From a virus: a DNA stretch of 64,000 nucleotides. The stretch is from positions 8,271 through 72,270 of the IMG/VR virus record IMGVR_UViG_3300033076_001343. One strand, given 5' to 3'. The position numbers and the translations under genes were made by a program. The notes beneath the pieces were generated by a model, which saw only the letters and a list, made by a program, of their open reading frames with translations, ran no database searches and had not been told where the DNA came from. Below, piece by piece: positions 2,393 to 62,815 of this stretch (positions are counted from its first letter, which is position 1; each line of letters begins with the position of its first letter).

Positions 2393-2437
2393 AATTTTTC
2401 TTTTACTATAAATATATGGGAACCTTTAAATGTTTAG

Positions 2438-2518
2438 TACCTTAGGAGGGACTCGAACCCTCACGACTTATGTCACTAGTTCCTAAGACTAGCGTGTCTA
2501 CCATTCCACCACCAAGGC
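2438..2518 (-). tRNA. tRNA-Leu (TAG), type II
   Basis: Anticodon arm CTAGT-CTTAGGA-ACTAG; long variable arm TGACATAAGTCGT; T arm GAGGG-TTCGAGT-CCCTC; acceptor has G.U pairs. Confidence 0.8.
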
Positions 2519-2623
2519 ATATATATCACATCAGACGGGCATTCTACTTCCAGCACCGAGAAATCGTATCTAATTTAACCCTACTCACCGCTGTATGGGT
2601 ACCTGAAGATATGATATATTTTG

Positions 2624-2697
2624 TACCCCCGTCAGGATTCGAACCTGAGACCTACTGCTTAGAAGGCAGTTGCTCTATCCATCTGAGCTACGAAGGC
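2624..2697 (-). tRNA. tRNA-Arg (TCT)
   Basis: D arm TAGCTCAGATGGATAGAGC; anticodon arm ACTGC-CTTCTAA-GCAGT; T arm TCAGG-TTCGAAT-CCTGA; acceptor GCCTTCG/CGGGGGT has three wobble pairs. Confidence 0.75.
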
Positions 2698-2705
2698 AAA
2701 TTTAG

Positions 2706-2790
2706 TACTCGGAGCGGGAATCGAACCCGCACGGGCGTAAAGCCCACAAGATTTTAAGTCTGGCGTGTCTACCTATTCCACCACCCGAGC
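2706..2790 (-). tRNA. tRNA-Leu (TAA), type II
   Basis: D arm near-identical to Leu(TAG); anticodon loop CTTAAAA; variable-arm hairpin GGGC-TTTA-GCCC; T arm GCGGG-TTCGATT-CCCGC. Confidence 0.75.
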
Positions 2791-2848
2791 ATTTATTATT
2801 TCAAAGAACTATGGTACAAATATAATTGATTTTTTGGAAAGATACAAG

Positions 2849-3616
2849 TTACTCAGCAAAACTTTCTTCATAAATTGTATCGGTCTGATTTTCTTCAGTA
2901 TTGTAAGTGTGTTCTAAAGTCACTGTCGAATCGTTAAAGTTGAATGTAAAAACACCATCAGAACCTTCATTGATTTCCCACCCTCCAAAAGCATTTTCAA
3001 GCTCTCTGTAACACCAATTTTCTATTTCAGCGGGTACTGCATCGCCAGTTGGGTCGAATGAACTTTCAATATAACCTGAGTCACCTCCACCATTATATGG
3101 TAATGTTAATATACCATCATTTGGAATTTCAATTTCAGACATGTCATTTTCCATCCATCTATCAAATCTTTCTTTGTCTTCATCAGAATCAAATTCAACC
3201 AGATGACCATTGTCCCTACCATAATAATAAAGTTCATGTGTTACAGAAATTACTTTCTCTTCTGTGTCTATGCCAATTGATGCCCTTTGATTACTAATAT
3301 AATCAATGTCAATATCATTATTTAGATTGTCTAACGAATCGGCATATTCAAGAACTTTTTTTAAGATAGGCTTCAATCCTTCTGGTATGTCTGCAGTATA
3401 ACTGTTGTCAAATCTAGTTACGTGATTCCAATTAACGTCTTTTGAATTAATTTTATCGTCATCTTGTTCCATCTCAATGTCGACATATCCTCTTTTCAAA
3501 CCTAAAGAATTCAAATAGTTTGAGACTCTTCTTAGATATTTTTTTTCTTCTGGTGTTAATATTCCTTTCATATTATTAAATATCAGTCTTCTATGTTCAT
3601 TGTCCTCAACATCCAC
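2849..3616 (-). CDS. acidic hypothetical protein (in tRNA array)
   Basis: 255-aa ORF, D/E-rich; start may be the internal Met at about 3571 to avoid overlap with the upstream gene. Confidence 0.5.
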   Translation of the reverse strand: MDVEDNEHRRLIFNNMKGILTPEEKKYLRRVSNYLNSLGLKRGYVDIEMEQDDDKINSKDVNWNHVTRFDNSYTADIPEGLKPILKKVLEYADSLDNLNNDIDIDYISNQRASIGIDTEEKVISVTHELYYYGRDNGHLVEFDSDEDKERFDRWMENDMSEIEIPNDGILTLPYNGGGDSGYIESSFDPTGDAVPAEIENWCYRELENAFGGWEINEGSDGVFTFNFNDSTVTLEHTYNTEENQTDTIYEESFAE

Positions 3617-3930
3617 TGAGGTCGTTTATTTTCTGAAATATTTATAATCCATTCTTTTGCAGATGGAACATAGTTATTACAATCTTCTCTAACATGTTGT
3701 TCACCAACATAACGAGTGTAAACTATTTTTCCATCACTATTCAAGAATTCGGCACCAAATCTTTTTTCCATTTCAAAGATACCTTCACTGTGGTGTCGAA
3801 ACATTCTATGCAAAGAATCTCCCAACCAACCTTTGGTCTCATCCATCCATTCATGTAGATGAATATAATCTTCAGGTTTTCCACCGAACTTTTTTGCGGA
3901 ACTTTTTGCGTGTAAATTTGGATGTGCCAT
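3583..3930 (-). CDS. hypothetical His-rich protein (115 aa)
   Basis: The six-frame ORF 3583-4119 runs through the tRNA-like gene at 3946-4020; I truncated it to the Met at 3928-3930 (MAHPNLHAKSS...). Confidence 0.5.
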   Translation of the reverse strand: MAHPNLHAKSSAKKFGGKPEDYIHLHEWMDETKGWLGDSLHRMFRHHSEGIFEMEKRFGAEFLNSDGKIVYTRYVGEQHVREDCNNYVPSAKEWIINISENKRPQWMLRTMNIED

Positions 3931-3945
3931 AAGTTTATTTAATAG

Positions 3946-4020
3946 TGGAGCCAGTGGGAATCGAACCCACCTCAGAAACATTGCAAGTGTTTCTCGCCAA
4001 GCCTTGGTACATGTAACCCC
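3946..4020 (-). tRNA. tRNA-like, possible tRNA-Ala (TGC) with poorly formed D arm
   Basis: T arm GTGGG-TTCGATT-CCCAC; anticodon arm GAAACA-CTTGCAA-TGTTTC (anticodon TGC); acceptor GGGGTTA/TGGCTCC needs several G.U pairs; D arm non-canonical. Confidence 0.4.
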
Positions 4021-4247
4021 ATTAACTTGTCTTGTCTGTCTGTTCCATGTTTTGTTGACTGTAAGCATCACAATCAACTTTTTCAACTTTACATGAGAAC
4101 AAAGCAAACCCGAGAACAATCAAAATTATAACACCGAATGCGATACGAAATTTTGTTTCTAAATTTTTTTCATCTTGTTCCATAATCTTATTTTTATAGT
4201 ATAACGTATTAATTCGGTACTTTGGTTGTTCTTTGTTAAAAATTTTG

Positions 4248-4321
4248 AGCCTCCTGAGGGATTCGAACCCACGACCCGCTGATTACAAATCAGCTGCTCT
4301 GGCCAACTGAGCTAAGGAGGC
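4248..4321 (-). tRNA. tRNA-Thr (TGT)
   Basis: GCCTCCT-TAGCTCAGTTGGCCAGAGC-A-GCTGA TTTGTAA TCAGC; perfect acceptor pairing; one mismatch in the T stem. Confidence 0.85.
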
Positions 4322-4326
4322 GATTT

Positions 4327-4402
4327 TGGCGGTCCCAACGGGATTCGAACCCGTACCTCGCACCGTGACAGGGTGGAATTGTAACCATTCAACCATGAGA
4401 CC
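4327..4402 (-). tRNA. tRNA-Asp (GTC), CCA encoded
   Basis: Anticodon loop CTGTCAC on a 4-bp stem; T arm ACGGG-TTCGAAT-CCCGT; 3' end TGGGACC-G-CCA encoded. Confidence 0.7.
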
Positions 4403-4619
4403 AAGTTTCCCCACCTGAGATTACAGTAAGTAGATATTCATAGTTTTTCTATTCAAAACCCATAGCGTCTTACCGCTTAAAAGTCAACCATATACTCGGA
4501 GGTCAAGATGGTCTTCTTGCCTTTTTTCCGACGACCCCTTCTTCTAAAACCGTGAGAGGCGTTAGCTATACCATTTTTCAGTAACGGTACCAAAACTACT
4601 GAGTATCTCTTACTCATTG

Positions 4620-4692
4620 AGCGGGAGACGAGGTTCGAACTCGCGACTTATAGCTTGGAAGGCTATCGCTCTACCAACTGAGCTACTCCCGC
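4620..4692 (-). tRNA. tRNA-Gly (TCC)
   Basis: GCGGGAG-TAGCTCAGTTGGTAGAGC-G-ATAGC CTTCCAA GCTAT; acceptor perfectly paired. Confidence 0.85.
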
Positions 4693-4694
4693 AG

Positions 4695-4769
4695 TGGAGC
4701 GGGAAGGCGGAATCGAACCGCCGTATCCACCTTGGCAAGGTGGCGTAATAACCATTATACTACTCCCGC
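4695..4769 (-). tRNA. tRNA-Gly (GCC), CCA encoded
   Basis: Anticodon arm CCACC-TTGCCAA-GGTGG; T arm GGCGG-TTCGATT-CCGCC; 3' TTCCCGC-T-CCA. Separated from Gly(TCC) by 2 nt. Confidence 0.85.
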
Positions 4770-4912
4770 TTTTTTTATTTTCTCTTTCTAATCAGTTTCT
4801 TCAGTTTTCTTAACAAATTAATTTCTTTACCTGCAATTATAAATTCCTTTTTTCCTGATTCGAAAGTTCCTGATAAAACTTTTTTCATCATTCTTCTTTT
4901 TTATTGTTTATT

Positions 4913-4987
4913 TGGCGGTCTATGCGAGAATCGAACTCGCGGCACATCCGTGACAGGGATGTATGTTTGCCACTACACCAATAGACC
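4913..4987 (-). tRNA. tRNA-Asp (GTC), second copy, CCA encoded
   Basis: GGTCTAT-TG-GTGT AGTGGCAA ACAT-A-CATCC CTGTCAC GGATG-TGCC-GCGAG TTCGATT CTCGC-ATAGACC-G-CCA. Confidence 0.8.
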
Positions 4988-4993
4988 GTATTG

Positions 4994-5065
4994 CGTCCCC
5001 TCAAGGATTCGAACCTTGGACCTATTGGTTAACAGCCAATTGCTCTACCGCTGAGCTAAGAAGAC
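4994..5065 (-). tRNA. tRNA-Asn (GTT)
   Basis: Anticodon arm ATTGG-CTGTTAA-CCAAT; D arm TAGCTCAGCGGTAGAGC; T arm CAAGG-TTCGAAT-CCTTG. Confidence 0.85.
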
Positions 5066-5072
5066 GTAAATG

Positions 5073-5146
5073 TCGGGGTGGCAGGATTCGAACCTACGAC
5101 CTCTTGGTCCCAAACCAAGCGCGATACCTGGCTACGCTACACCCCG
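5073..5146 (-). tRNA. tRNA-Pro (TGG)
   Basis: Acceptor CGGGGTG/CACCCCG; anticodon arm CTTGG-TTTGGGA-CCAAG; T arm GTAGG-TTCGAAT-CCTGC. Confidence 0.85.
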
Positions 5147-5203: not shown

Positions 5204-5238
5204 AACAAAAAAACCCCGAACTTTTTGTGTTCAGGGTT
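5204..5238 (-). terminator. intrinsic terminator (minus sense), sequence-related to the one at 1884-1925
   Basis: AACCCTGAAC...GTTCGGGGT + T7 in minus sense; lies upstream (in transcription sense) of the tRNA array. Confidence 0.5.
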
Positions 5239-5421
5239 AATCATTTTTGGCTTCTTATTACCTTTGATTAAATCTGAACACGTGAGCATAAATCTCTCCC
5301 CCCGTCATTCGTCGGTGCTAAAGTCGCTCTAAGTGTGTTCAAATTTTTCATTGTTGTAATAATAGTATAAATAGTAACAAAAGTCAAAAAATCAATTGTA
5401 ATTCAATAAAAATTCGTATAT

Positions 5422-6003
5422 TTGTTTAAACGACATATCAATATGAAAAATCTATCATTAATTTTTACTTTATTCTTAATGACTAATTTACTTGGTCAAC
5501 ATAAAATCACATCTATTAGTGAATATAACGAATGGTCCACAAGAAAAAAAACTAACGACTTATTAAAAACAAATTTTGATGGTGGCACATACATTGATTC
5601 CGTTTTAATCTTATTAAACGAGTATCGTGTTGAGAATGGAGTTGAGCCTCTTATTTTAACCGACAACTTATGTAAAGTTGCCGAATTACAATCTCAATAT
5701 TGTGCAGACAATTTAATTCTAACTCACGACCAAGATGATGAATCTTTAAGTGACCCGTTTCTTCGTGGTTTAAAATTTAATGAAAGAGACGTAATGGGTG
5801 AAGTAGCCGCAGAATGTTCAATTGATATGTTATCAATTAAAAATAAAACTGTTTCATCATCACCAATTGAAAACTTAAAAACAAGTAGTGGTCATTCTCA
5901 AATCATGAGAGATGGAAAATATGTTAGTTGTGGTATTTCTTTAGTTCAATCAAAAAGAGACCTTAATCGTTACTATGTGGTAATTGTTTTTTCAACTAAT
6001 TAA
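5422..6003 (+). CDS. secreted CAP/SCP/PR-1-like domain protein
   Basis: N-terminal signal peptide (MKNLSLIFTLFLMTNLLG). CAP-like motifs: Y-R-x-x-N-G...PL (HNxxR region) and GHSQIMRDGKYVSCG (resembles GHYTQVVW...VGC). TATATTTG motif 5 nt upstream of the ATG. Confidence 0.5.
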   Translation: MFKRHINMKNLSLIFTLFLMTNLLGQHKITSISEYNEWSTRKKTNDLLKTNFDGGTYIDSVLILLNEYRVENGVEPLILTDNLCKVAELQSQYCADNLILTHDQDDESLSDPFLRGLKFNERDVMGEVAAECSIDMLSIKNKTVSSSPIENLKTSSGHSQIMRDGKYVSCGISLVQSKRDLNRYYVVIVFSTN

Positions 6004-7316
6004 CCATATGCAGCACATTGTACCAATTTACCCTTAACCTTTTTCACTTTTTCGGGACCGCCTCCGCCGCCTCCACCACCTTTTGGTTTATAGGTACCTT
6101 TTGCGGGTTTTAACTTACCATTAAACTCTTTTTGTTTATATAATGGATTTAATTCTAATGTATATCCTTGGGATTTTGTAACAATAGGTTTTACAGGTTC
6201 TACCCCTGTTTGACTTGCGGTTATCTTAATTTTTGCAACAACAAGACAGAATTTGTATTGGTCAGATTCAATTTGTGTGGATAATAATTGACCATAACCA
6301 AACACTTGTCTTTTACTATCGGGGCCAGATAATTTATCCGCACCATTTGATGAATAACTCATTCCGTTTGTGGTTCTCCCATCATAAAAAGTAAATCTGT
6401 TTGCTGGGTCGGGTCCACTAGAACCATCACCATTATATCCACCTCTTAAAACTTTTTGAAGACCTTGTCCTAACCCAACGCCGATTGATGATAACTTTTG
6501 AGTTATTAATTGGTAAACTTTTTCTCCCCTATCCATTGATAATTTGTTCCAAGTTTCTCCTTCGTAATCACCAGTGTTTCTTAATCTTGAACAACTTGAA
6601 GCAACTTCAATTGAAACTAGTTGAGCAATAGCGTTAGGATTGGTCGCCTTGATGTCATCAATTTGTCCCTTAGCGTCTGCAATCCAACTATCAATCGCTT
6701 GTATCAATGTCACGTCAGGTTCGTTTAAGTTGTCTTTATATACTGTTCTACCTGCAACCTCTAAAGGAATCTCAATTTCAACTGACGCTCCACCTGTTGC
6801 TGGTGATGCTGGTGTTGTAGTTTTAACAACATTACCCGCAACCAAGTCTGCTTCCCAATTATAAAGATTTTCTTCTCCTGTATAATTTTGATTTTTTGCA
6901 ATCTGTTTCTCTAATTGTCTTTTCTTAGTGAATGATTGTAAAAATTCTAAAGTTTGTTTTAAGAATTGTAGACGACTTGTTTGATTTAAGTTGAAATAAA
7001 AGATTGCCCTCTCATCATCATCTAACTTGTCCATTAGTGGTTTGTAAGCGGGGTCTTGCTTTAACTGATTAAGTTGATTATTAAAATTTGGATTTTTTGC
7101 GGTGATTTGTTTTTGCTTTGCGGGGGTAAGTCCTGCAGTACTATCTGCATACGTCTCATCAAATAAAACATCAGGATTTTCTTTACCAGTTCCCGATTGC
7201 GTAACTTGACCTGAACTACTCTTTGGGTCTTGCTCAGATATTAAAGGTTTAACTATTCCGTGTTCTGCAAGGAATAAATCCTTCATCCTTTTAATATGTT
7301 CATTTAAATCCATCAT
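6000..7316 (-). CDS. large hypothetical protein with Gly8/Lys-rich C-terminus
   Basis: 443-aa ORF. I set the start at MMDLNEH/MDLNEH, which is immediately preceded (sense) by GGTATTTATATTT. Confidence 0.55.
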   Translation of the reverse strand: MMDLNEHIKRMKDLFLAEHGIVKPLISEQDPKSSSGQVTQSGTGKENPDVLFDETYADSTAGLTPAKQKQITAKNPNFNNQLNQLKQDPAYKPLMDKLDDDERAIFYFNLNQTSRLQFLKQTLEFLQSFTKKRQLEKQIAKNQNYTGEENLYNWEADLVAGNVVKTTTPASPATGGASVEIEIPLEVAGRTVYKDNLNEPDVTLIQAIDSWIADAKGQIDDIKATNPNAIAQLVSIEVASSCSRLRNTGDYEGETWNKLSMDRGEKVYQLITQKLSSIGVGLGQGLQKVLRGGYNGDGSSGPDPANRFTFYDGRTTNGMSYSSNGADKLSGPDSKRQVFGYGQLLSTQIESDQYKFCLVVAKIKITASQTGVEPVKPIVTKSQGYTLELNPLYKQKEFNGKLKPAKGTYKPKGGGGGGGGPEKVKKVKGKLVQCAAYG

Positions 7317-7364
7317 AAATATAAATACCATTCACCATGGAAAAATATGACAATTTAATGTGTA

Positions 7365-7625: not shown

Positions 7626-7626
7626 G

Positions 7627-9471: not shown

Positions 9472-9485
9472 CTTTTTTATTTTTG

Positions 9486-9559
9486 TGGTCCCTACAGGAC
9501 TTGAACCTGTGACCTACTGATTATGAGTCAGCTGCTCTGACCAACTGAGCTAAGGGACC
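9486..9559 (-). tRNA. tRNA-Met/Ile2 (CAT), outside the main array
   Basis: GGTCCCT-TAGCTCAGTTGGTCAGAGC-A-GCTGA CTCATAA TCAGT-AGGTC-ACAGG TTCAAGT CCTGT-AGGGACC-A. Confidence 0.85.
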
Positions 9560-9720: not shown

Positions 9721-10137
9721 TTACGCGGTGTGCTCCCAAACAACTCTAACACAGTTTTGAGGTAATCTGTGAATATGACGGTAATTGTTAATATAACCCA
9801 TCATATTTGCAGAACCAACAGCATTTGCAGAGTGTACAACAACATCAACCACAGGTTCACCATCCAACCATTTATTAACCAACCATTTGGTACAATCCAT
9901 ACCAGTTTTTTCGGTAATATTATCATAGTTGATTTCATAGTTTTTTACCACACCATGCAACCACTCTTTCATCGCACTATCACCCAAATCGTGGTCCAAA
10001 GAAATTAATTCAATATTCTTTAAACCAATCTCGTTGATTTTCTGTACGAATTCATCGTAAGAACGAACCACAACCCAATTATCCACGTCAACTGGTGTTC
10101 TTACGTCATCCAAATAAATTCTATATAATTTTTTCAT
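9721..10137 (-). CDS. conserved hypothetical protein (MKKLYRIYLDDVR...SLDHDLGD)
   Basis: 138-aa ORF. CAAAGATA on the + strand (the complement of TATCTTTG) lies directly upstream of its start. Confidence 0.5.
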   Translation of the reverse strand: MKKLYRIYLDDVRTPVDVDNWVVVRSYDEFVQKINEIGLKNIELISLDHDLGDSAMKEWLHGVVKNYEINYDNITEKTGMDCTKWLVNKWLDGEPVVDVVVHSANAVGSANMMGYINNYRHIHRLPQNCVRVVWEHTA

Positions 10138-10180
10138 ACTACAAAGATAAAATAAAAACTTGATACTTCAAATAAGTTTG

Positions 10181-10904: not shown

Positions 10905-11201
10905 ATGGAAAATTACACAAACCCAGAACAAGAAGGTCAAGAACAAAACCAACAAGATTTGATTAACGCATCTTTAATCTTTGCAAGAGCATTAGGTCTC
11001 ATTTTCAGAGATGATGAAGGTATTGTTGTTGACGTTAAAGGTGATGTTAACTTAGGTGAAGAAGTAACTAAAGTTATTGTTTTCAAACAAAACAATCAGG
11101 TTCACATTTATCGTTGTGAAGAAGATGTAGAAGAAGGTACTGCAGTTAACTTAGGTATGCCACCAGTTGAAGGTGAAGAATTAACTGAACCAGAACAATA
11201 A
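10905..11201 (+). CDS. acidic hypothetical protein
   Basis: 98-aa E/D/Q-rich ORF. Confidence 0.45.
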   Translation: MENYTNPEQEGQEQNQQDLINASLIFARALGLIFRDDEGIVVDVKGDVNLGEEVTKVIVFKQNNQVHIYRCEEDVEEGTAVNLGMPPVEGEELTEPEQ

Positions 11202-49016: not shown

Positions 49017-49087
49017 AATAGAACTTAATCTATTATAAATACCAAATTAATGGTGTTTATGTTGATAAATTGAGGATAAATACCAAA

Positions 49088-50717: not shown

Positions 50718-50863
50718 ACAATTATTTTATAAATAAATACAACGAATTTGCAATTATAAAACTAACCAGTATTGTACCAGTGATATACAATATTTTATAT
50801 GTCAACTCAACTTGGTCTTTTCTTCGACCTTGATTTTCATTACAATCCCACTCTTCCATAATT

Positions 50864-51712
50864 TTAGTTTTTTCGTACTCTTAATCTATCTGTGTTATAA
50901 CCTTGCTCTCTCAAGTATTCTTCAATTATATTAACGACTGCATGTTCATTAGACCAGCTAGTCCATCTTTTAAATATTAAAATTATATCAGCAACTAACT
51001 GATTAGAACTAAAAGATATTTTAACCGAATGCAAATAGTTTGAAACTCCTGTTAGTTGTTTTATTTCTTTTTTGAAAACTTTATTGAAATATCCTTTAAC
51101 CCATTCTTCAGTACCTATAAATCTAGGGTCACCAACATTCAACTGTATCTTACCGTGGGCTGGACTACCTTGTTCTAATCCAAGATAATTGTTAACAAAA
51201 TGTCTAAATTCTCTTGGGAATGCCTTAACATGATTAAGATTACCGTCATATTTCATTGTAGGTACAAAATCGGCTTCTAAATAAGCATAAACATTAAATG
51301 GACTCCTCTCTTCAATTTTAAAAGTTATGAAATCAGGTAAATCATAACTTTCAACAAAATGGTTAATAGCCTTTGCAAATCTTTCACTAAATTTAAAACC
51401 TTTACCCATGTTTGGTAATTCTTTAATTCTTTTTTCAACCAAAGACCTACCTACTCTAACTAATTTATCTAAAGCATTACCATAACCAAAACGAGTTTCC
51501 AACTTATAATCCTTATCAAAATCTTCAAGATATTTTTTTACCAAATAAGACATTGGGTATTTACCAACCTCGTCACCATGAGTTTTTTTTATCCAAGGTC
51601 TAAAATTTTCAACAAACACCTCTATAAAATCCTCATTTGAATACCCTGATAAATCTAATGGTTCCAAATCCTCTGAATCTTCCTTCAAATATATTTTATA
51701 ATTTTCACTCAT
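50864..51712 (-). CDS. hypothetical protein
   Basis: 282-aa ORF; GGTATTTATAGATAC immediately upstream. Confidence 0.5.
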   Translation of the reverse strand: MSENYKIYLKEDSEDLEPLDLSGYSNEDFIEVFVENFRPWIKKTHGDEVGKYPMSYLVKKYLEDFDKDYKLETRFGYGNALDKLVRVGRSLVEKRIKELPNMGKGFKFSERFAKAINHFVESYDLPDFITFKIEERSPFNVYAYLEADFVPTMKYDGNLNHVKAFPREFRHFVNNYLGLEQGSPAHGKIQLNVGDPRFIGTEEWVKGYFNKVFKKEIKQLTGVSNYLHSVKISFSSNQLVADIILIFKRWTSWSNEHAVVNIIEEYLREQGYNTDRLRVRKN

Positions 51713-51770
51713 GTATCTATAAATACCATAAAAATAAAAAAACCTCGAATAAAAATCCGAGGCTCAAAAT

Positions 51771-52265: not shown

Positions 52266-52297
52266 AAAAAACCCCACTTATTAGGTGGGGTTTTTTA
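52266..52297. terminator. family terminator (bidirectional A/T runs)
   Basis: AAAAAACCCCACTTATTAGGTGGGGTTTTTT. Confidence 0.6.
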
Positions 52298-52310: not shown

Positions 52311-52667
52311 TTATTCAGGCCAACTATTTCCGTAATATTTTTGTTTAGGTCCTTTATACCTCACTTTGGTAGAACAACCTTTTTTCTTAACCTTATATTT
52401 TCCACCGTGGTTTAGACCAACTTTTTTAGCCTCTTCAGCACTAATGTCGTCAAAACATTTCATGTCTTCAGATGCAATTTTAGTTGAGTCCACAACAACT
52501 CCTGAGTCATCATCACCTTCATCTTCGTTAACTAATGGTTTTGCATCTCCAAGTTTGGCATTTAATAATCTTGAGAAACTTTCGGTCATAACATTCATTC
52601 CCCCTGTATGTTGCTCACGGATACTATTTTTCTCCTGTTCTGATAAATCATTTAAAATATGTTTCAT
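52311..52667 (-). CDS. hypothetical basic protein
   Basis: 118-aa ORF; AGTATTTATAATAAAACAA directly upstream of the ATG. Confidence 0.45.
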   Translation of the reverse strand: MKHILNDLSEQEKNSIREQHTGGMNVMTESFSRLLNAKLGDAKPLVNEDEGDDDSGVVVDSTKIASEDMKCFDDISAEEAKKVGLNHGGKYKVKKKGCSTKVRYKGPKQKYYGNSWPE

Positions 52668-52671: not shown

Positions 52672-52690
52672 TGTTTTATTATAAATACTA
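52672..52690 (-). promoter_or_regulatory. candidate phage-specific promoter motif AGTATTTATAATAAAACAA (sense) upstream of ATG
   Basis: One of more than 20 instances of (G)TATTTATA(A/T) located 5-25 nt upstream of minus-strand gene starts. Confidence 0.45.
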
Positions 52691-52691: not shown

Positions 52692-53720
52692 TTAATGTTC
52701 AAATGTGTTACGTGTTTTGTAATCAAATACAACCATTAATCCACCTGAGGACTTTCTTATGAGATATTTAAGGTCATATATTAAATCTTCGTATCCATAT
52801 CCTGTACGAGCGGATGAAATATTGAATGTAATTTTAATATATAAACCAGGAGTTGTCTCATACATATTACCATCCATGTCAGTTCTTGAACCTGAAATCA
52901 TATTAATTTCGTCTACGGTAATACTATCAACATTATCAATTACATCACAAGAACTGAAACTAATATCATTTGGGAATGATTCATGACTTATGTCATTACA
53001 ACCTTTTTTAATGTAATCCAATTTTTCATTAATCAGTTCTTGGAATACTTCTTTTCTATCTGATTTTTGTTCTTGTAACGTCTCTTGGTCATCAAGGTCT
53101 AAATCTTGATTGGGTGAAGTTTTTGGGGGTAATGGTGGGTCCAACACAAATTTATCATTAACCCAATTTCTTAATTCATTTTCAACAAAATATTCAGGAA
53201 CCTCTTCGTCGTCAGGTTTTTCATCTGCCAAATCTGCAATGTAACGAGCAAATTTAACTTTATACTTATCATCCATCATGGTCATTAAACCATCGGAAAT
53301 GAAAAATATTTTTGATAATGGGTCTTCTAAATCAAGGTCACCTTCAGCAAGTTTAAACGCTCTTAATATGGATTTACCCCAAAATGTTTTATAACTTTCA
53401 GTTTCGGTAAGTCCTGGCTTTAATATCTTATTAACTGCTCTTGCAGCTCCTGCAACAATACCTGGAATCATTAGTTGTGGTAAAAAGAACGGGATTAATC
53501 TGATTGTTGCTTTGAAACCTCCTTCACCCATGTGTTTATACAAACGAGTTTTGGCTGCGGCTTTAACTAATTCTTTTAACTGACCAAAAGTAATCTTACC
53601 CTGAGCACTACAAAACTTTTTACTATCACAAATATTTTTAACCGCAGTTTTTGATGGCTCGACATCAAGTCCATCTTCCATGATTGTTTTATATTGTGAT
53701 TCTGTTATAACGTATTTCAT
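52692..53720 (-). CDS. leader-family B protein (MKYVITESQYKTIMEDG)
   Basis: 342-aa ORF; the N-terminal heptapeptide motif is shared with six other genes. Confidence 0.55.
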   Translation of the reverse strand: MKYVITESQYKTIMEDGLDVEPSKTAVKNICDSKKFCSAQGKITFGQLKELVKAAAKTRLYKHMGEGGFKATIRLIPFFLPQLMIPGIVAGAARAVNKILKPGLTETESYKTFWGKSILRAFKLAEGDLDLEDPLSKIFFISDGLMTMMDDKYKVKFARYIADLADEKPDDEEVPEYFVENELRNWVNDKFVLDPPLPPKTSPNQDLDLDDQETLQEQKSDRKEVFQELINEKLDYIKKGCNDISHESFPNDISFSSCDVIDNVDSITVDEINMISGSRTDMDGNMYETTPGLYIKITFNISSARTGYGYEDLIYDLKYLIRKSSGGLMVVFDYKTRNTFEH

Positions 53721-53721: not shown

Positions 53722-53982
53722 TTAGAAATTTCTTATCTCGTCTCCGTCTTCGTAACTGTTATATTCTTCTTCGCTAATTTTGACAGGTTTAAGTCCAAGT
53801 TCAAAAATCCCTTCGATAAAATAAACTTCATTTCGAGAACCCTTTTCAGTTGCCCCAACACCTACGGTATCACCATCCTCATCAATAATCTTAAAATAGT
53901 TAAATACGGTTTTGGACTCATTCACTACCTTATTTACTAATTTAACTAAATCAGACTCCGTAAGTCTTATTATTTTCTTCAT
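53722..53982 (-). CDS. leader-family A protein (MKKIIRLTESDLVKLVNKVVNE)
   Basis: 86-aa ORF; TCATATTTATTTAAT upstream. Confidence 0.5.
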   Translation of the reverse strand: MKKIIRLTESDLVKLVNKVVNESKTVFNYFKIIDEDGDTVGVGATEKGSRNEVYFIEGIFELGLKPVKISEEEYNSYEDGDEIRNF

Positions 53983-54005
53983 ATTAAATAAATATGAAGA
54001 ACAAC

Positions 54006-54033
54006 AAAAAACCCCACCTGTTAGATGGGGTTT
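54006..54033 (-). terminator. family terminator
   Basis: AAAAAACCCCACCTGTTAGATGGGGTTT. Confidence 0.6.
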
Positions 54034-54938: not shown

Positions 54939-54953
54939 AGTCTAAAGGTATTA

Positions 54954-54980
54954 AAAAACCCCACCTTGTGAGTGGGGTTT
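54954..54980 (-). terminator. family terminator
   Basis: AAAAAACCCCACCTTGTGAGTGGGGTTT. Confidence 0.6.
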
Positions 54981-57118: not shown

Positions 57119-57526
57119 TTATTCTTCAGGTAAAAACAATCTACCAAAAAGCTCTCTATTTGATGGTGGTCTAACTAAAGTCATCTCCACGACTCCAAAT
57201 TTTACAAATTCATAGTCAGGATATGTAAAATTGAATAGTTTATTAATTTCTTCAGAATAATAATCCTTAACACCTTGAGGTTGTTGATTAGGTTTAATAT
57301 CTACCGATAAATTTAATCTAAATTTCTCAATAGGTTCAAACGTTGCTGGGTTATATACCAATGATGATTGTACATCAGTTATTCTAAAATTAAGAATTTC
57401 AGGAAACATTTTCATTACAACTTGATAAAGTTGATTAGGTATTACCAACATGGAATTATCAAATACTTTGTATCTGGTATCATGATTCACTGACAATGTT
57501 TCGGTAAATTTTGGAAAATCACACAT
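57119..57526 (-). CDS. hypothetical protein
   Basis: 135-aa ORF. Confidence 0.45.
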   Translation of the reverse strand: MCDFPKFTETLSVNHDTRYKVFDNSMLVIPNQLYQVVMKMFPEILNFRITDVQSSLVYNPATFEPIEKFRLNLSVDIKPNQQPQGVKDYYSEEINKLFNFTYPDYEFVKFGVVEMTLVRPPSNRELFGRLFLPEE

Positions 57527-57554: not shown

Positions 57555-57584
57555 CAAAAAACCCATCCTTGTGAGATGGGTTAA
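57555..57584 (-). terminator. family terminator (variant)
   Basis: AAAAAACCCATCCTTGTGAGATGGGTT. Confidence 0.5.
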
Positions 57585-57586: not shown

Positions 57587-58969
57587 TTATTTCTTTTTAT
57601 ATGCTTTAAATGGTTTGTCTTTATGTATGACTTCTCGACCTTTACCCGCAGGAGTTACATAATAATTTTTATTCTTAAAGATTATAAAACTATTTCCTTT
57701 GTTATATAAGATATACCCCAAGTCTTTTTTATTTTTATAACTATTGTTCATACCATAGGTATAAACCTTAATATCACCATTTGGCATTCTTTCAGTTCTA
57801 TCAACAGGTTTTATTTGAATGGTCATCGGTTGTTCTCCTGCGATTTTTAATGTAAGGTCAATAGAATCGTATCGGTCTCTCTTATTACCAGGGGGATAAA
57901 CCTCATATTCAAAATTTATTCCATTACTCTCCAAAAAATCGCTAAGATTTTTCAACGCCAAAAGTTCATTTTCAATACCACCTTTAATTGAGTTCCATTG
58001 TTTATTTAATAATGTCTTTAGAAATTTATCATCATTTTGGAACACCGAGCTCAACCATTCAATTTTATCACCCGAACCTTCTTCCCTCCATTTTTTATTA
58101 ATCAAGGCTTTGACCTCCGACTTTGTATCAAAAAAGTTCATTATTGACCAATCAATATCCATGTCAGTTTTTTCTCCAATTGTATGAATACCTCTAATAC
58201 CTGCAGTGGAATCACCATCTTCTTCAAACCAATTATCAGGAAAGGCCATTTTTAACGATTCTAAAATTTCGTCAGATGTAAAATCACCTTCAGTTGGTTT
58301 TTGTTCTTTCACTTTCATCAATGATAAAAGTTTATCATAATAAACATTTTTTAAATCAGTACCATAAACATATGGAGAGTTACCTTTAGTATGGATTATT
58401 CTACTATCAAATTCAAATTCACCAAAAGGACCTATAAAATATACCGTTCTTGGAGTTTCAGGTTCACGGTATTCACTTGAGTTAAAATCTGGTCCGTTAA
58501 AAAATACTACTCCAATTTGTGACTCACTATCTTTTTTTGGGAGAACTCCAATTCGACTATATTCATAATCAGGATAATCCTCATCAAAGTCTTCAACTTT
58601 TGTTACCTCAGATATTTCTTCATTAATTGAAATTGGCCAAATTCTTGTAAAGTCAAACTCCACACCCAAAACATCACTACAATATTCTCCAATAAGTGCA
58701 CTCGCCTCAAATCTATTGACATCAAACATTGACATAATGTTTTTAACAAATGATGAAGAAATTGCCAATTGCAGTTCACCTGCATTATTTTTTCGAACTT
58801 TAACTTGATATTGGTTATCTCCATCAAACTTATATCCTGGACCATCCTCATCACCAACACGAACCATATTTGCAAACGTCATATCCAAAAACCTTTTGAC
58901 CATACCACTTGTACGGTCTTCAGTTTCCATCAACTTTTCAAACTGTGATTCAGTTATAATATATCTCAT
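57587..58969 (-). CDS. leader-family B protein (MRYIITESQFEKLMETED), 460 aa
   Basis: Leader motif; the internal − ORF 58603-58875 in another frame is judged spurious. Confidence 0.55.
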   Translation of the reverse strand: MRYIITESQFEKLMETEDRTSGMVKRFLDMTFANMVRVGDEDGPGYKFDGDNQYQVKVRKNNAGELQLAISSSFVKNIMSMFDVNRFEASALIGEYCSDVLGVEFDFTRIWPISINEEISEVTKVEDFDEDYPDYEYSRIGVLPKKDSESQIGVVFFNGPDFNSSEYREPETPRTVYFIGPFGEFEFDSRIIHTKGNSPYVYGTDLKNVYYDKLLSLMKVKEQKPTEGDFTSDEILESLKMAFPDNWFEEDGDSTAGIRGIHTIGEKTDMDIDWSIMNFFDTKSEVKALINKKWREEGSGDKIEWLSSVFQNDDKFLKTLLNKQWNSIKGGIENELLALKNLSDFLESNGINFEYEVYPPGNKRDRYDSIDLTLKIAGEQPMTIQIKPVDRTERMPNGDIKVYTYGMNNSYKNKKDLGYILYNKGNSFIIFKNKNYYVTPAGKGREVIHKDKPFKAYKKK

Positions 58970-58987
58970 AATAATAAATACCTTTAA

Positions 58988-59563
58988 TTAACCTTCACTA
59001 AACCCTCCACTCGACGATAATTCATCTGTATCAATATCATAGTTGTCTTTTAACCATTTAGTTAACATCTCTTCAATTCTGAGGTGGTTAATACCAAAAA
59101 TATAAGATAATACACCTCCAAGTATTCTATTATTAACTGTTACTCTTATCTTCCCAGAAGGGAAAGTAATTACACCAGCAATTTTAGTCCCATTATGGTC
59201 TTTTAGAAACGTCCATTGTGGGTTTGGCTCGAACTCATCAAATTTTAAGTTATCAAATAATTTTAAAAAATCATCAGGAGTATTTATTTCAAGTATTTTT
59301 GCGAAATTTTTGGCACCACCAGCAACAATTACTGCAGCTTCATAACCTCTTGTAGTTAAAATGTCATATACATCTGATTTTGTAAGTCTGTTCTTAAGAA
59401 TCGTTTTAACGTTTTCAATATCACCAAAATATTTTTCAACATTTCTTAAACCATGAGATTTAATTAAATCAACCAACGCATCCCCCTTTGGCTGATTTTC
59501 AGCGATAACTCGTTTGACAATTCTAGTTAAGTCAGATTCCGTTAGTTTTATGATTTTTGGCAA
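58988..59563 (-). CDS. leader-family A protein (MPKIIKLTESDLTRIVKRVIAE) with probable TTG start
   Basis: Leader alignment requires initiation at TTG (plus-strand CAA, 59561-59563); TTGTATTTATAATAAACAAATTTAATT upstream. Confidence 0.5.
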   Translation of the reverse strand: MPKIIKLTESDLTRIVKRVIAENQPKGDALVDLIKSHGLRNVEKYFGDIENVKTILKNRLTKSDVYDILTTRGYEAAVIVAGGAKNFAKILEINTPDDFLKLFDNLKFDEFEPNPQWTFLKDHNGTKIAGVITFPSGKIRVTVNNRILGGVLSYIFGINHLRIEEMLTKWLKDNYDIDTDELSSSGGFSEG

Positions 59564-59614
59564 AATTAAATTTGTTTATTATAAATACAATTAAGGGTTA
59601 AAAAACTTTGCAGA

Positions 59615-60163
59615 TTGATTTTATTTAATTATCTTTGTTATATGAAAAAGTTAGTCACATTATTATCATTACTCTTAAGTGTTGTGGGCTTTACTCAAAC
59701 AAGAAAAGATATTGTCCCTAACAATATTGATATCAACTACCTTAACTCTTTAGTTCTCCAAATTTGTAATGAAAGAACCAAAGATAGTTCCGTATTCAAA
59801 ACAACAAGTTCTGTAACATTCAAATGTGCTGAATACCAATCAAGCTACATGGCTAAATACTCCATTTGTACTCACAATAATTTAAATACTCACAGAGGTG
59901 TAACTTTGAAAACAATTGTTGACCGAAAAAAATATTTTGATAAGTCTTCAGTGAATTCAATCGCTGAGATTTGCACATTCGCAACAGTAACAAAAAAAGT
60001 AACTTACGAAGAGTTGGCAAATACAATTATTGATAATTACTTCCTATCATCAGTTCATAAAAAAACTATCTTTAATGATTATCCATATGGTAGTTTTTCG
60101 TGTACTGTGGGAACATACGAAGGACAAAATGGTGTATACGTTACAGGATTCTTTAGTCGATGA
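59615..60163 (+). CDS. secreted hypothetical protein
   Basis: Signal peptide MKKLVTLLSLLLSVVGFTQ; the only + gene in the 44-64 kb block. Confidence 0.45.
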   Translation: MILFNYLCYMKKLVTLLSLLLSVVGFTQTRKDIVPNNIDINYLNSLVLQICNERTKDSSVFKTTSSVTFKCAEYQSSYMAKYSICTHNNLNTHRGVTLKTIVDRKKYFDKSSVNSIAEICTFATVTKKVTYEELANTIIDNYFLSSVHKKTIFNDYPYGSFSCTVGTYEGQNGVYVTGFFSR

Positions 60164-61420
60164 TTATTCGTATGATACGAATGAAAAACTCAACATCTCA
60201 ATAAACAGAAGACCGTCAGCTTCTTTAACAATAACAGGTCGAGAATCTGTAACAAACTTAGTACTTGAGTCAACTCTTGTATCGTAAGTCCTATCGTCGA
60301 AACTAGCGGTAACTATTTCACCAAAAGACATTCCGTCAACAATAAATGTATTACCTTTAATTTCACCAGAAACCTCTTTTTTGTTTAGGAAATTACCTGC
60401 AGTTCTATAACCCATAATACCTTTTCCGTCACCAGTAAATAATCCTTTAACTGATGTAACATCGCCTCTTTTAACTGCAACGGCACCATTAGGGAATTTT
60501 ACCGCTTCTAATTTTGGCCCTCCCCACTTTGTCAAATCAAGGTATTCTTTCTTAGCTTCAGCAGGTTTGTCAGTAGTTGTAGATGAGATTGAACCTGGTT
60601 CATCTTTAACGACAACATCAGGTTTTGGAATATCAATAGTGGTTTGTGAAGGTACAACAGTAACACTCTTATAGTCAAAACCTCTTTTACCTTCTTGACC
60701 ATAATAGTTTATACCTGGTTTATAGATAATGTTTTTTGATATGTTAATACCACCAGTCCTATCCATAACGTCTTGAACAATTAAGTTACCCAATTCTTTA
60801 GCTCTTGTATCTGCTAAATATTGGTTCATTTCACTTGGATTTTTAAGTCCATTATATAATGTACCAGGGTGGTCCAATTTAGAATAACCTTTAGGTACAT
60901 CATAAGTTGGTCTTGCAGCGTCTGCAGTACCTTGTATTGTTAATGTACCCATTTGACTCATATGGGCTGATTTAAGGAAGTCCACAATATTTTGAATGAA
61001 TATGTCATACTGAGCTTTAGCATCAGGGAAACTTTCAAATTTTGGTTTAACCATGTTATCAGGGTATGGGAATGCACTATCACTAAGATTTAATGAACTT
61101 AACACTGGTTTTTTCTCTTTTTCAGGTGGAGTTTGTGTTTTGACCTGCTCACCTCCACCAATTATTCGTGGAATGGATGAACCTGAAGTAATACCATATA
61201 GTTTTTTACCATATCCAACATTAACGGCATGGAAATTACTATCTCCTGCAAAGTTTAACATTCCCTTTTTACGACCTTGCCAGTTATATGGTGATTGTTC
61301 TTCGAATGGGTCATAAGCGGATTTTTTATCAATTTGTTCTTGTTCGCTAACCACAACACCTCTTTGATAACCAAAAAGATATTTTATTTTATTTACTTCT
61401 TCATTAATTAAGTTCCCCAT
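60164..61420 (-). CDS. hypothetical protein with MGNLINEE leader-like N-terminus
   Basis: Six-frame ORF extends to 61468, but TGTATTTATAGTTATAGTAGAATTATT precedes the internal Met; start set there. Confidence 0.5.
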   Translation of the reverse strand: MGNLINEEVNKIKYLFGYQRGVVVSEQEQIDKKSAYDPFEEQSPYNWQGRKKGMLNFAGDSNFHAVNVGYGKKLYGITSGSSIPRIIGGGEQVKTQTPPEKEKKPVLSSLNLSDSAFPYPDNMVKPKFESFPDAKAQYDIFIQNIVDFLKSAHMSQMGTLTIQGTADAARPTYDVPKGYSKLDHPGTLYNGLKNPSEMNQYLADTRAKELGNLIVQDVMDRTGGINISKNIIYKPGINYYGQEGKRGFDYKSVTVVPSQTTIDIPKPDVVVKDEPGSISSTTTDKPAEAKKEYLDLTKWGGPKLEAVKFPNGAVAVKRGDVTSVKGLFTGDGKGIMGYRTAGNFLNKKEVSGEIKGNTFIVDGMSFGEIVTASFDDRTYDTRVDSSTKFVTDSRPVIVKEADGLLFIEMLSFSFVSYE

Positions 61421-61455
61421 AATAATTCTACTATAACTATAAATACAATGATAAA

Positions 61456-61486
61456 CAAAAAACCCCACCTGATAAAGATGGGGTTT
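61456..61486 (-). terminator. family terminator
   Basis: AAAAAACCCCACCTGATAAAGATGGGGTTT. Confidence 0.6.
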
Positions 61487-61514
61487 ATATGTAAAAAAAA
61501 AATATTTTATAGGT

Positions 61515-61973
61515 TTAAAACCATTTTTCTGCTTTATTAAATTTCTGCATATAATTTTGGATTTTCATAAAGTGTTGAAAATTCTCATCCGTATAATTAT
61601 TTCCCGCACCCAACATTGCAATTTTTTGTGCCCATTGTTGTATGGTTGATTGAGGTCCAGTCTGTCCTCTTGAACGAATAGCACTTAAAATAGCACTTAA
61701 AATAGTTGGTTTATTTAATTGAGTTTTTACCATTGATAAAAATTTTGAATATTCATTATAATCGGAAAAAAATCCTTTAATCATTACCATATCTTCATTC
61801 CAGTCATCCCCCCATACATGTTTAAAGAACCTTTCAAAACGGTCTTGTTCCTTTGACTTTTTAGGCTGAGGTCCTAATCCAGGATTAATCCCTGATTGAG
61901 GTCCCTGTTCTTGAATAACTCGTTTAACGATACGAGCCAAATCGGATTCTGTAAGTCTTACTATTTTTTTCAT
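61515..61973 (-). CDS. leader-family A protein (MKKIVRLTESDLARIVKRVIQE)
   Basis: 152-aa ORF. Confidence 0.5.
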   Translation of the reverse strand: MKKIVRLTESDLARIVKRVIQEQGPQSGINPGLGPQPKKSKEQDRFERFFKHVWGDDWNEDMVMIKGFFSDYNEYSKFLSMVKTQLNKPTILSAILSAIRSRGQTGPQSTIQQWAQKIAMLGAGNNYTDENFQHFMKIQNYMQKFNKAEKWF

Positions 61974-61986
61974 AATTAAATCACTC

Positions 61987-62727
61987 TTAATCTCGTGTTG
62001 GTATTTTATTAGTAATTGTTAATTTACCTGATGAACAAACCCAATTGATTTCTTGTTTTTTTGGATAACCCTCACCTTTATCTATAACACCAGTACCTCT
62101 TGTCCAATCACTACCAGTTTTGAATAAATGTGTTTCGGACCCGTCACTATTCGTTTTAGAAAATACCTGACCCTCAAAATGTTTAGGTATTCTCATGTAA
62201 TCAATTTGACCCCATTTATACCCTTTAAAACAAGGATTTTCTGGTCTTGTCATACGAACATTCTTTATTAACGGTATTGTTTTTTTTGATACTTCGGCAT
62301 CATCCAAACTAATCAATTCACCTTTCTCAGGAAAAACAAATGTTCTACTTATCGACACAGGTACTCCCTTTTCTAAATTAACACCAAATTCGATTGACAT
62401 TTTCTGAATTTTACTTCCTCCTGAACTTTTTGGAAAAAATCTTCCTCTGAAAGCCATATTAACATATTTAATATCCATTACATTCTTAGCATTAGTATCA
62501 TAAGACATATATATAGGTTCTTCTTTAAGACTATCTAAAAAATAACATTCGTAATTATATCCATCATCTCTATCTTCAGCACAAATTGCCTTATTAATTA
62601 ATTTAGCGGCAACATCTTTAGTGAATTTTGATGCTTGTTTGTCAAATTTACCTGTAGTTTGTTCACTTATCACTCGTTTAACGATACGAGTCAAATCGGC
62701 TTCCGTTAATCTTATAATTTTTTTCAT
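61987..62727 (-). CDS. leader-family A protein (MKKIIRLTEADLTRIVKRVISE)
   Basis: 246-aa ORF; TTGTATATTTATTATAAACGAATTTAATA upstream. Confidence 0.5.
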   Translation of the reverse strand: MKKIIRLTEADLTRIVKRVISEQTTGKFDKQASKFTKDVAAKLINKAICAEDRDDGYNYECYFLDSLKEEPIYMSYDTNAKNVMDIKYVNMAFRGRFFPKSSGGSKIQKMSIEFGVNLEKGVPVSISRTFVFPEKGELISLDDAEVSKKTIPLIKNVRMTRPENPCFKGYKWGQIDYMRIPKHFEGQVFSKTNSDGSETHLFKTGSDWTRGTGVIDKGEGYPKKQEINWVCSSGKLTITNKIPTRD

Positions 62728-62815
62728 TATTAAATTCGTTTATAATAAATATACAATAGGATAAAAAAACCGACCCTTTTTCTGAGATGACACCAACGAG
62801 ATGTCCAAAATATAA

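Follow-up and report, generated by a model that had tools for sequence, protein, structure and literature searches.

In phage T4, late promoters carry TATAAATA at -10, which is recognized by gp55 together with gp33 and the gp45 clamp. T4-like cyanophages and other phages that encode gp55 have late promoters of the NATAAATA type, which keep a TAAATA core. Promoter elements can also lie very close to the start codon, as in leaderless mRNAs, which are known from lambda cI transcribed from PRM and are common in Actinobacteria and Deinococcus. The primary-sigma promoters of Bacteroidetes comprise -33 TTTG and -7 TAnnTTTG elements. Transcription in Flavobacterium johnsoniae starts 4-5 nt downstream of the TAHHTTTG -7 element, T-12, A-11, T-8, T-7, T-6 and G-5 are nearly invariant, and 87% of leaders are longer than 10 nt (PMC6847099); leaderless genes are reported to be rare in Bacteroidetes, with 2.4% predicted (PMC3160421).

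Here, a 64-kb stretch of DNA from an uncultivated large phage (the window, 33% G+C, along which all positions are numbered) was analyzed for the TATTTATW 8-mer (the P motif, consensus RTATTTATW), for which no report of use as a phage promoter was found in the literature searched. Megablast with 20 kb and tblastn with two proteins gave no match among GenBank phages, and hits to the RNA ligase told nothing about lineage. Exact-protein look-ups and exact 34-mer scans of IMG/VR and JGI metagenomes for further parts of the genome were likewise negative. RTATTTATW is probably the -10-type core of a phage-specific promoter that has no -35 box, most probably belongs to the late class and would be read by a gp55-like sigma factor, a reading drawn from sequence comparison.

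An oriented element upstream of genes in the window

The gene set comprised 99 genes curated via a codon-usage score, with spurious TTG or GTG starts moved to the first ATG and tRNA-overlapping ORFs dropped. The commonest 7-mer in positions -40 to -1 of these genes was TATTTAT, found in sense orientation before 25 genes and in antisense before 7. Dinucleotide shuffling of the upstream regions left 4.9±2.1 genes with TATTTAT (maximum 12 in 1000 shuffles), so that the initial annotation, which had placed the octamer upstream of more than 20 genes, was upheld and the chance expectation for random AT-rich sequence was exceeded. Both strands of the window together held 42 copies of TATTTATW, compared with 24.4±4.9 after dinucleotide shuffling (0 of 100 shuffles reached 42), and 33 copies of RTATTTATW, compared with 11.9±3.5 (highest shuffle, 22). 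More than half of the TATTTAT copies (27/50) lay in sense no more than 20 nt upstream of a gene start, and only 9/50 were intragenic although coding sequence makes up 85% of the window. The sites, with distances measured from the 8-mer to the start codon, are as follows.

2407-2414, minus strand: P motif TATTTATA, 14 nt before the ATG of 2102-2392
7320-7327, minus strand: P motif GTATTTATA, 3 nt before the corrected ATG of gene 6000-7316
16509-16536, minus strand: two P motifs (16509-16516 and 16529-16536), 11 and 31 nt before 15421-16497
16811-16818, minus strand: P motif, 3 nt before the ATG of 16544-16807, predicted leaderless
21771-21778, minus strand: P motif within palindrome TATTTATAAATA, 12 nt before the corrected ATG of 20463-21758
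29385-29392, plus strand: P motif, 5 nt before the ATG of 29398-30021
31754-31761, minus strand: P motif, 4 nt before the ATG of 30751-31749
34511-34518, minus strand: P motif, 17 nt before the ATG of 33870-34493
37040-37047, plus strand: P motif, 3 nt before the ATG of 37051-37686, with a terminator T-run 1 nt upstream
38192-38199, minus strand: P motif, 3 nt before the ATG of 37913-38188
40040-40047, minus strand: P motif, 17 nt before the ATG of 38202-40022 (Laminin_G_3, tail-fibre-like paralogue)
41946-41953, minus strand: P motif, 4 nt before the ATG of 40058-41941 (Gly_rich_2, weak tail-protein match), 9 nt past terminator 41963-41985
43011-43018, minus strand: P motif, 3 nt before the ATG of 42714-43007
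43855-43862, minus strand: P motif, 16 nt before the ATG of 43524-43838 (holin-like)
45195-45202, minus strand: P motif, 3 nt before the ATG of 44688-45191
47020-47027, minus strand: P motif, 4 nt before the ATG of 46356-47015 (SLT transglycosylase / baseplate-hub-like), 11 nt past terminator 47039-47063
49034-49041, minus strand: P motif, 17 nt before the ATG of 48765-49016; second GGTATTTAT copy at 49076-49082
50728-50739, minus strand: two overlapping P motifs, 10 and 14 nt before the ATG of 50136-50717
51718-51725, minus strand: P motif, 5 nt before the ATG of 50864-51712, 10 nt past terminator 51736-51762
52680-52687, minus strand: P motif, 12 nt before the ATG of 52311-52667
53987-53994, minus strand: P motif, 4 nt before the ATG of 53722-53982, 11 nt past terminator 54006-54030
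58973-58980, minus strand: P motif, 3 nt before the ATG of 57587-58969, overlapping the end of the upstream gene
59580-59587, minus strand: P motif, 16 nt before the TTG start of 58988-59563
61438-61445, minus strand: P motif, 17 nt before the corrected ATG of 60164-61420, 11 nt past terminator 61457-61483
62744-62751, minus strand: P motif, 16 nt before the ATG of 61987-62727, following a hairpin and T-run
34541-34548, plus strand: candidate P motif GGTATTTATG, 13 nt before in-frame ATG 34561 of gene 34546-34971
43025-43032, plus strand: candidate P motif, 19 nt before a plus-strand 48-codon ORF
5366-5373, minus strand: candidate P motif, 14 nt before a 27-codon ORF adjoining the tRNA cluster

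Nineteen of the 20 genes named initially are among these, while 52005 lacks an exact motif; sites at 16544, 30751, 37051, 37913, 43524 and 48765 were additional. The leaders of 58988 and 61987, and those of 46356 and 53722, are indeed alike, as had been claimed for these paralogues, leaving about 22 P sites independent of duplication. At 6000, 20463 and 60164 the motif falls within the longest ORF and the real ATG lies 15, 24 and 48 nt further in, respectively; TTG was taken as the start of 58988-59563 because of an N-terminal match to its paralogues.

Some sites showed further local features. The operons of 15421-16497, 53722-53982 and 61987-62727 run on into 14380-15408 and 13724-14395, 52692-53720, and 61515-61973, respectively. 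Gene 29398-30021 has a second, host-type element (TATCTTTG, 16 nt before its ATG), and the P motif at 31754-31761 lies within the 3' end of gene 31749-32186 as a predicted internal promoter. One copy, TATTTATC before 16855, was left uncounted as it overlaps host-type TTATCTTTG.

Predicted transcription starts and the genes concerned

Spacing between the 8-mer and the ATG fell into two classes, 3-5 nt (13 sites) and 10-17 nt (12 sites), and in both of them an A recurred at the fifth base after TATTTAT (i.e., 3 nt past the 8-mer; 21 of 26 aligned sites). Where the upstream gap was 25 nt or more, 21 of 63 genes had the motif, compared with 4 of 36 internal genes. A hairpin and T-run ended 1-11 nt upstream of six P sites (9-11 nt for five of these), and another was spotted by eye next to a seventh site (62744); with terminators this close, there is no room for a -35 box. 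Consistent with this, the alignment of 26 P sites showed no conserved position upstream of -1 and no -35 partner. A Shine-Dalgarno core preceded only 4 of the 99 genes and the P motif itself is AT-only, so that it is not a ribosome-binding signal. Overall, the P motif behaves like a core promoter that marks the starts of transcription units rather than like a ribosome site.

From this geometry, transcription would start at the conserved A, about 4 nt past the last T of TATTTAT. At the 13 sites with 3-5 nt spacing, the mRNA would begin on the AUG or 1-2 nt before it and would thus be leaderless; from the remaining 12 sites, leaders of 10-17 nt would be expected, short and rich in A. The initial proposal of leaderless or near-leaderless mRNAs therefore holds as a prediction for 13 of 25 sites, whereas about half would have leaders of 10-17 nt.

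Host-type TAHHTTTG promoters preceded 16 genes of the window. TAnnTTTG promoters had been described as belonging to plus-strand metabolic genes; their presence was confirmed, though with 10 on the plus strand and 7 on the minus strand. Their genes encode enzymes of nucleotide metabolism and include ThyA, Rnl1, PNK, ClpP, phosphoesterases and a denV-like gene, and these enzyme genes, presumed early or middle, would be driven via the unmodified host holoenzyme. The P motif shares with the Bacteroidetes promoter its distance to the start codon and the presence of two spacing classes (4 nt or 16-24 nt for the host-type element here), and it agrees with TAnnTTTG at T1, A2, T5 and T7. It nonetheless forms a separate class and precedes other kinds of genes. 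Placed in the host register, it departs from the sigma-A -7 consensus, with A in place of T-7 and A/T in place of G-5. Judged by spacing, leaderless geometry is predicted for 6 of about 17 host-type and 13 of 25 phage-type promoters, both standing out against the reported rarity of leaderless genes in Bacteroidetes.

Genes behind the P motif include the only recognizable virion and lysis genes of the window, with annotations as tail-fibre-like (40058 and 38202), holin-like (43524) and SLT (46356); the tail fibre of locus L021 also belongs to the class. Most P-driven genes are, however, small ORFs without assigned function that are bracketed by terminators, a pattern that early genes of large phages typically show as well. 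The class is most probably late, an assignment that draws on few, mostly weak annotations. The original suggestion of a candidate phage-specific, possibly late, promoter thus stands for a discrete, oriented element that is set apart from the host-type class and found before virion and lysis genes.

A gp55-like protein and a sister motif in related phages

Orthologues of 40058 in many distinct phage fragments had TATTTAT 5-20 nt upstream, and the motif was present in 93 of 705 non-redundant upstream regions of relatives, where its spacing peaked at 4-6 nt. Motif and spacing recurred across hundreds of divergent phage fragments. A sister group has GATATATA in place of TATTTAT; both motifs were never found in one locus, and TAHHTTTG was present in loci of both groups. 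No IMG/VR relatives of protein 57587 were found, and the motif is not shared by Tenacibaculum jumbo phage PTm1.

Relatives' fragments that carry the motif and several of the window's genes code for a protein with T4 gp55 as its nearest solved structure. It is longer than gp55 (~235 aa compared with 185 aa), and its second helical domain gave a weak HTH-like match. The lead was a weak one from a 6-member gp55 HMM and was then confirmed; phmmer with T4 gp55 alone gave no matches. Homologues of this sigma comprised more than 8000 near-identical sequences and 1581 family representatives at 50% identity. The search for a gp55-like sigma, which had been suggested initially, was therefore positive in motif-using relatives and negative in the 64-kb window, and neither a gp55-like nor another sigma was found in the loci of the closest relatives. 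PHROGs and Pfam scans covering nearly all proteins of the window likewise found no sigma or RNA polymerase. The sigma-bearing fragments are more distant, with 34-44% identity in the tail-fibre N-domain, and they have a handful of genes in common with the window (E 1e-36 to 1e-64). Motif sites were taken from the best 80 of more than 554 sigma-centred loci, and many of them are likely to be orthologous rather than independent. A degenerate-pattern scan with at least 120 matches listed gave, among these, no overlap between the sigma gene and the contigs of the closest relatives, and the extra loci it produced had little in common with the window. Sigma and motif are associated by co-occurrence, from which we infer their pairing.

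By analogy with T4 late transcription, the host RNA polymerase core together with a phage-encoded gp55-like sigma would read RTATTTATW. The resemblance to T4 that was proposed initially applies to mechanism, in that both systems have a single -10-region element without a -35 and relatives encode a gp55-like protein, but it does not extend to sequence, as the P consensus in sense is not TATAAATA. The P motif sequence TATTTATA is the reverse complement of the T4 box, read here in sense. An antisense T4 late box was considered and rejected, since transcription from it would head for the upstream terminators and run opposite to all genes; ATAAATA in sense preceded only 7 genes, compared with 25 for TATTTAT. 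Unlike in T4, the predicted start is only ~4 nt downstream of the motif, which would make half of the mRNAs leaderless. The P motif may be likened to cyanophage-type late promoters as a lineage-specific version of a gp55-read, -10-only box, with a core of TATTTAT (or GATATATA in the sister group) instead of TAAATA.

Alternative readings and implications

The P motif could instead be a variant of the host -7 element, read by the host sigma-A holoenzyme, perhaps weakly or with a phage activator. Host-sigma recognition is conceivable because TATTTATW shares 6 of 8 positions with TAnnTTTG and lies equally far from the ATG, and the window contains no sigma gene of its own. We consider this unlikely, as the mismatches affect T-7 and G-5, two positions at which host promoters hardly vary (PMC6847099), and the P sites form a tight second class without a continuum between the two. 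Moreover, the sister group exchanges the motif for GATATATA while retaining TAHHTTTG, and motif-using relatives encode the gp55-like protein. Promoters of a phage RNA polymerase, either virion-packaged and early or non-virion, would be a further source of such an element. In phiKZ-like jumbo phages, many small hypothetical genes are preceded by an AT-rich box that stands ~10 bp upstream of the start. Early AT-rich motifs preceding hypothetical genes have been described for this group (PMC11512511), and the many small motif genes of no known function, each with its own terminator, as well as relatives on contigs of up to 335 kb, would fit. Yet the motif is found on tail-fibre-like, holin-like and lysozyme-like genes, and PHROGs detected no polymerase subunit in the window or in 74 proteins of relatives. 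The abundance of host-type promoters argues for dependence on the host polymerase, and a gp55-like sigma, as in the relatives, is a trait of phages without their own polymerase (PMC7824862), making this reading quite improbable.

Two further explanations do not involve a promoter. Bacteroidetes do without Shine-Dalgarno sequences and AT-rich upstream signals have been reported (PMC3160421; PMC6847099), and with a motif this near to start codons, an SD-independent translation enhancer or standby site, as proposed for that phylum, could be envisaged. Such a role seems very unlikely for an exact 7-8-mer, as opposed to a composition bias, that is found on only a quarter of genes, chiefly the first in transcription units, often directly past terminators and with a bimodal spacing that parallels a known promoter element. 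Finally, given the low G+C content of the window and the similar leaders of some paralogous motif genes, the pattern might be artefactual, stemming from AT-rich intergenic DNA or from paralogues duplicated along with their upstream regions. To this we attach almost no weight, as it is contradicted by the shuffle and orientation controls (25 genes compared with 4.9±2.1 in same-region dinucleotide shuffles; sense to antisense 25:7), by unrelated flanks at most sites and by the recurrence of motif and spacing in hundreds of divergent fragments.

Returning to the gp55-like sigma reading, it is possible, though we offer it only tentatively, that very abundant uncultivated AT-rich aquatic phages have re-tuned the T4 late system, with a two-domain gp55-like sigma (a gp55 fold and a further helical domain at the C-terminus), TATTTATW or GATATATA as its promoter, a start on the A of the ATG and many leaderless late mRNAs, in hosts that are probably Bacteroidetes, without SD-driven initiation and with leaderless mRNAs otherwise rare. 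If true, the switch between TATTTATW and GATATATA would be a natural experiment in sigma-promoter co-evolution. If the promoter assignment is correct, the genes of a large uncultivated phage group that is abundant in the environment could be split into temporal classes from sequence only, and the motif would help to call start codons, several longest-ORF starts here being promoter artefacts. The T4 gp55 paradigm would then be widened to include another promoter sequence and a new, longer sigma, and leaderless expression would be frequent in a phylum whose translation initiation is poorly understood.

Distribution of the TATTTAT element in the window

The gene set was built by codon-usage scoring, with open reading frames overlapping tRNAs excluded, and TTG or GTG "starts" that coincided with a promoter TTTG or contained the motif were shifted to the first ATG. 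Several "TTG starts" of longest open reading frames proved to be the TTTG of host-type promoters (the Bacteroidetes -7 element TAnnTTTG, or TAHHTTTG). The 64-kb window (G+C 31–39%) carries ~99 protein genes (70 on the minus strand), and no near relative of the phage was found among the GenBank phages searched. The identifiable enzymes are thymidylate synthase, T4-type RNA ligase 1, polynucleotide kinase, ClpP, phosphoesterases, a denV-like glycosylase, a carbamoyltransferase and an HNH endonuclease, while virion- or lysis-type products comprise two tail-fiber-like paralogs, an SLT transglycosylase and a holin-like protein. A Shine-Dalgarno core precedes only 4 of the 99 genes and TAHHTTTG is found in sense orientation before 16, from which we infer a Bacteroidetes host.

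A recurrent element immediately before start codons, as claimed in the initial annotation, was recovered at 19 of the 20 genes named there (52005 being the exception) and at six further genes. An enrichment analysis of the kind proposed at the same time identified TATTTAT as the commonest 7-mer within 40 nt upstream of genes (25 sense vs 7 antisense), compared with 4.9 ± 2.1 genes (maximum 12, n = 1000) in dinucleotide-preserving shuffles of the same upstream regions. Window-wide, TATTTATW occurs 42 times and RTATTTATW 33 times, against 24.4 ± 4.9 and 11.9 ± 3.5 in shuffles. More than half of the TATTTAT copies (27/50) are sense-oriented and lie ≤20 nt upstream of a gene start, and only 9/50 are intragenic, though coding sequence makes up 85% of the window. 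In its extended form the consensus reads R-TATTTAT-W with an A-rich stretch after it, and no position farther upstream is conserved.

Other upstream elements were also observed. A one-mismatch relative of the motif, (A/C)CTTATAA (e.g., ATATACTTATAA, seen twice), precedes genes without either main motif and is possibly either a weak variant or a third class of element. The perfect palindrome TATTTATAAATA lies between two divergent genes and makes the motif readable on both strands; bidirectional use is possible. The near-identical terminator CCCCATCT(n)ACAGGTGGGGTTTTTT flanks small genes at seven places, is followed by either promoter class, and may represent a mobile terminator-promoter cassette. 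An extended AAAAATTCGTATMTTTG is common to three host-type sites (before 5443, 24470 and 37666).

Upstream elements and associated features in the window.
116–5146 and 9485–9559 (-): tRNA cluster, 14–15 genes
1886–1921, 5207–5236: terminator-like hairpins followed by TAnnTTTG, in the tRNA cluster region
10142–10149: host-type element 4 nt before ATG of 9721 (9721–10137)
16843–16850: the same, gene 16855
24458–24465: the same, gene 24470
32191–32198: the same, gene 31749
37895–37902: the same, gene 37666
59630–59637: the same, gene 59642
21767–21778: palindrome between 20463–21758 (-) and 21834–22091 (+)
18805–19392, 28759–29364, 45920–46117, 57119–57526, 10905–11201: genes preceded by (A/C)CTTATAA
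24411–24441 (+): repeated terminator
47039–47063, 52266–52290, 54006–54030, 54953–54977, 57556–57580, 61457–61483 (-): repeated terminator

Promoter-like geometry and the associated genes

Of the 63 genes preceded by a gap of ≥25 nt, 21 carry the motif, vs 4 of the 36 internal genes; it thus marks the starts of transcription units. At three sites (30751, 37913, 57587) it lies inside the 3' end of the preceding gene. Six motif sites follow the T-run of a GC-rich hairpin by 1–11 nt, five of them by 9–11 nt, and a seventh post-hairpin site (62744) has a hairpin identified by eye; with terminators this close upstream, the position of a -35 box is taken up by the terminator. The distance between the 8-mer and the start codon is bimodal, with 13 sites at 3–5 nt and 12 at 10–17 nt. 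Among 26 aligned sites from both spacing classes, 21 have an A as the fifth base downstream of TATTTAT; in the short class this is the A of the ATG. Host-type TAnnTTTG shows the same two spacing classes in the window: exactly 4 nt in six genes, for which leaderless mRNAs are therefore predicted, and 16–24 nt in the rest (~10). In Flavobacterium johnsoniae the host element spans -12 to -5 and transcription starts 4–5 nt downstream of it, with 87% of leaders longer than 10 nt (PMC6847099). By this geometry, both motif classes lie where a -10-type element would start RNA on or next to the ATG. Together, unit starts, terminators, bimodal spacing and the host-type parallel argue for a core promoter.

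For the 33 proteins of motif-headed units, the PHROG and Pfam matches were confined to tail, baseplate-hub, lytic-tail, transglycosylase and holin families, the remainder being unknowns. Host-type-headed units encode thymidylate synthase, RNA ligase, kinase, phosphoesterases, ClpP, ATPase and DNA-binding proteins. Judged from gene content, this split fits a putative division into early/middle (host-type) and late (motif) genes, though most motif genes are without assigned function.

Many motif-driven gene products, the SLT transglycosylase among them, carry one of two N-terminal peptides, M(K)K(I/V)IRLTESDL..RIVKRVI or MKY(L/I/V)I(K/T/N)ESQ, although the proteins are otherwise unrelated. Speculatively, the peptides could be a shared signal for targeting or assembly, with the LTE recalling the LxE site of the T4 prohead protease.

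Genes sharing the N-terminal peptides.
46356, 48765, 53722, 58988, 61515, 61987
29398, 52692, 57587, 63014, 63291, 63608

Conservation of the motif in related phages

The N-terminal domain of the tail-fiber-like protein 40058–41941 retrieved 54 IMG/VR loci on contigs of up to 335 kb, and many distinct loci carry TATTTAT(A/T) 5–20 nt before the 40058 ortholog. Locus by locus, TATTTAT is the top upstream 7-mer among relatives. It was found in 93 of 705 non-redundant upstream regions with a spacing peak at 4–6 nt; TAnnTTTG again has its peak at 4 nt. One motif-driven gene of L021 is a clear tail fiber. Sister loci (L029, L031, L033, L035, L036, L038/L039) carry GATATATA in place of TATTTAT, mostly 4 nt before the ATG. 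The two are mutually exclusive per locus, and TAHHTTTG is found in both sets, a pattern that would be expected from a phage-encoded specificity factor. The motif is absent from the examined part (1–50000) of Tenacibaculum phage PTm1, a cultured Bacteroidetes jumbo phage. There, ATACATA-like words are repeated upstream of structural genes and may be PTm1's own late motif.

A gp55-like sigma candidate and the reading of the motif

T4 gp55 as a single query gave no match. In eight motif-using loci (L030, L034, L037, L040, L048, L050, L051, L053), a profile HMM built from six gp55 homologs repeatedly but weakly matched a single conserved protein of ~235 aa. Its family has >8000 close homologs and 1581 cluster representatives at 50% identity, is very abundant in aquatic metagenomes, and has no Pfam assignment; one homolog is labeled "sigma-24 family protein" by JGI. 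Using hhalign, an 80-member alignment matched the gp55 family over residues 10–123 (93% probability, E 3.4e-7). The AlphaFold model (pLDDT 90.2) consists of two helical domains; sigma factors ranked first in Foldseek, not significantly, and the C-terminal domain weakly matched TrpR-like HTH proteins.

In 80 further IMG/VR fragments with the gp55-like gene (L062–L141, the best 80 of >554), the most frequent 8-mer upstream is ATATTTAT (132 sense vs 6 antisense among 937 regions), with spacing peaks at 4–5 and 19–23 nt, and the motif is present in 77/80. The motif does not drive the gp55-like gene. Several window proteins have homologs in these fragments: 17806 (4e-64), 35359 (9e-40) and 26964 (7e-36). 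No family member was found in the 64-kb window or in loci of its closest relatives. Separately, 38 non-redundant upstream regions of L062–L141 carry (A/G)TTAGATA exactly 4 nt from the ATG; this may reflect either an additional promoter class or a single conserved orthologous site.

The motif might instead be a variant host promoter, the promoter of a phage RNA polymerase, a translation signal or an artefact, each of which we consider of low probability. The host-type element shares its spacing classes. Aligned in register, TATTTATW departs from TAHHTTTG at -7 and -5, positions nearly invariant in host promoters, and its sites form a discrete second class with no continuum. According to Iyer et al. 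2021 (PMC7824862), every T4-related "group 2" large phage, Bacteroidetes ones included, encodes sigma factors and has no polymerase of its own. The T4-like late promoter proposed in the initial annotation is supported in its -10-only placement and, through the sigma candidate in relatives, in a probable gp55-type mechanism. The consensus differs from the T4 box, and by this sequence the motif falls outside the T4 late-promoter family; further departures from T4 are the predicted start distance, the frequency of leaderless geometry and the two-domain structure of the sigma candidate. Overall, the element is genuine, oriented and conserved, is positioned as a -10-only promoter, and is most probably the late promoter of this phage lineage, which host core polymerase carrying a gp55-like sigma would read.
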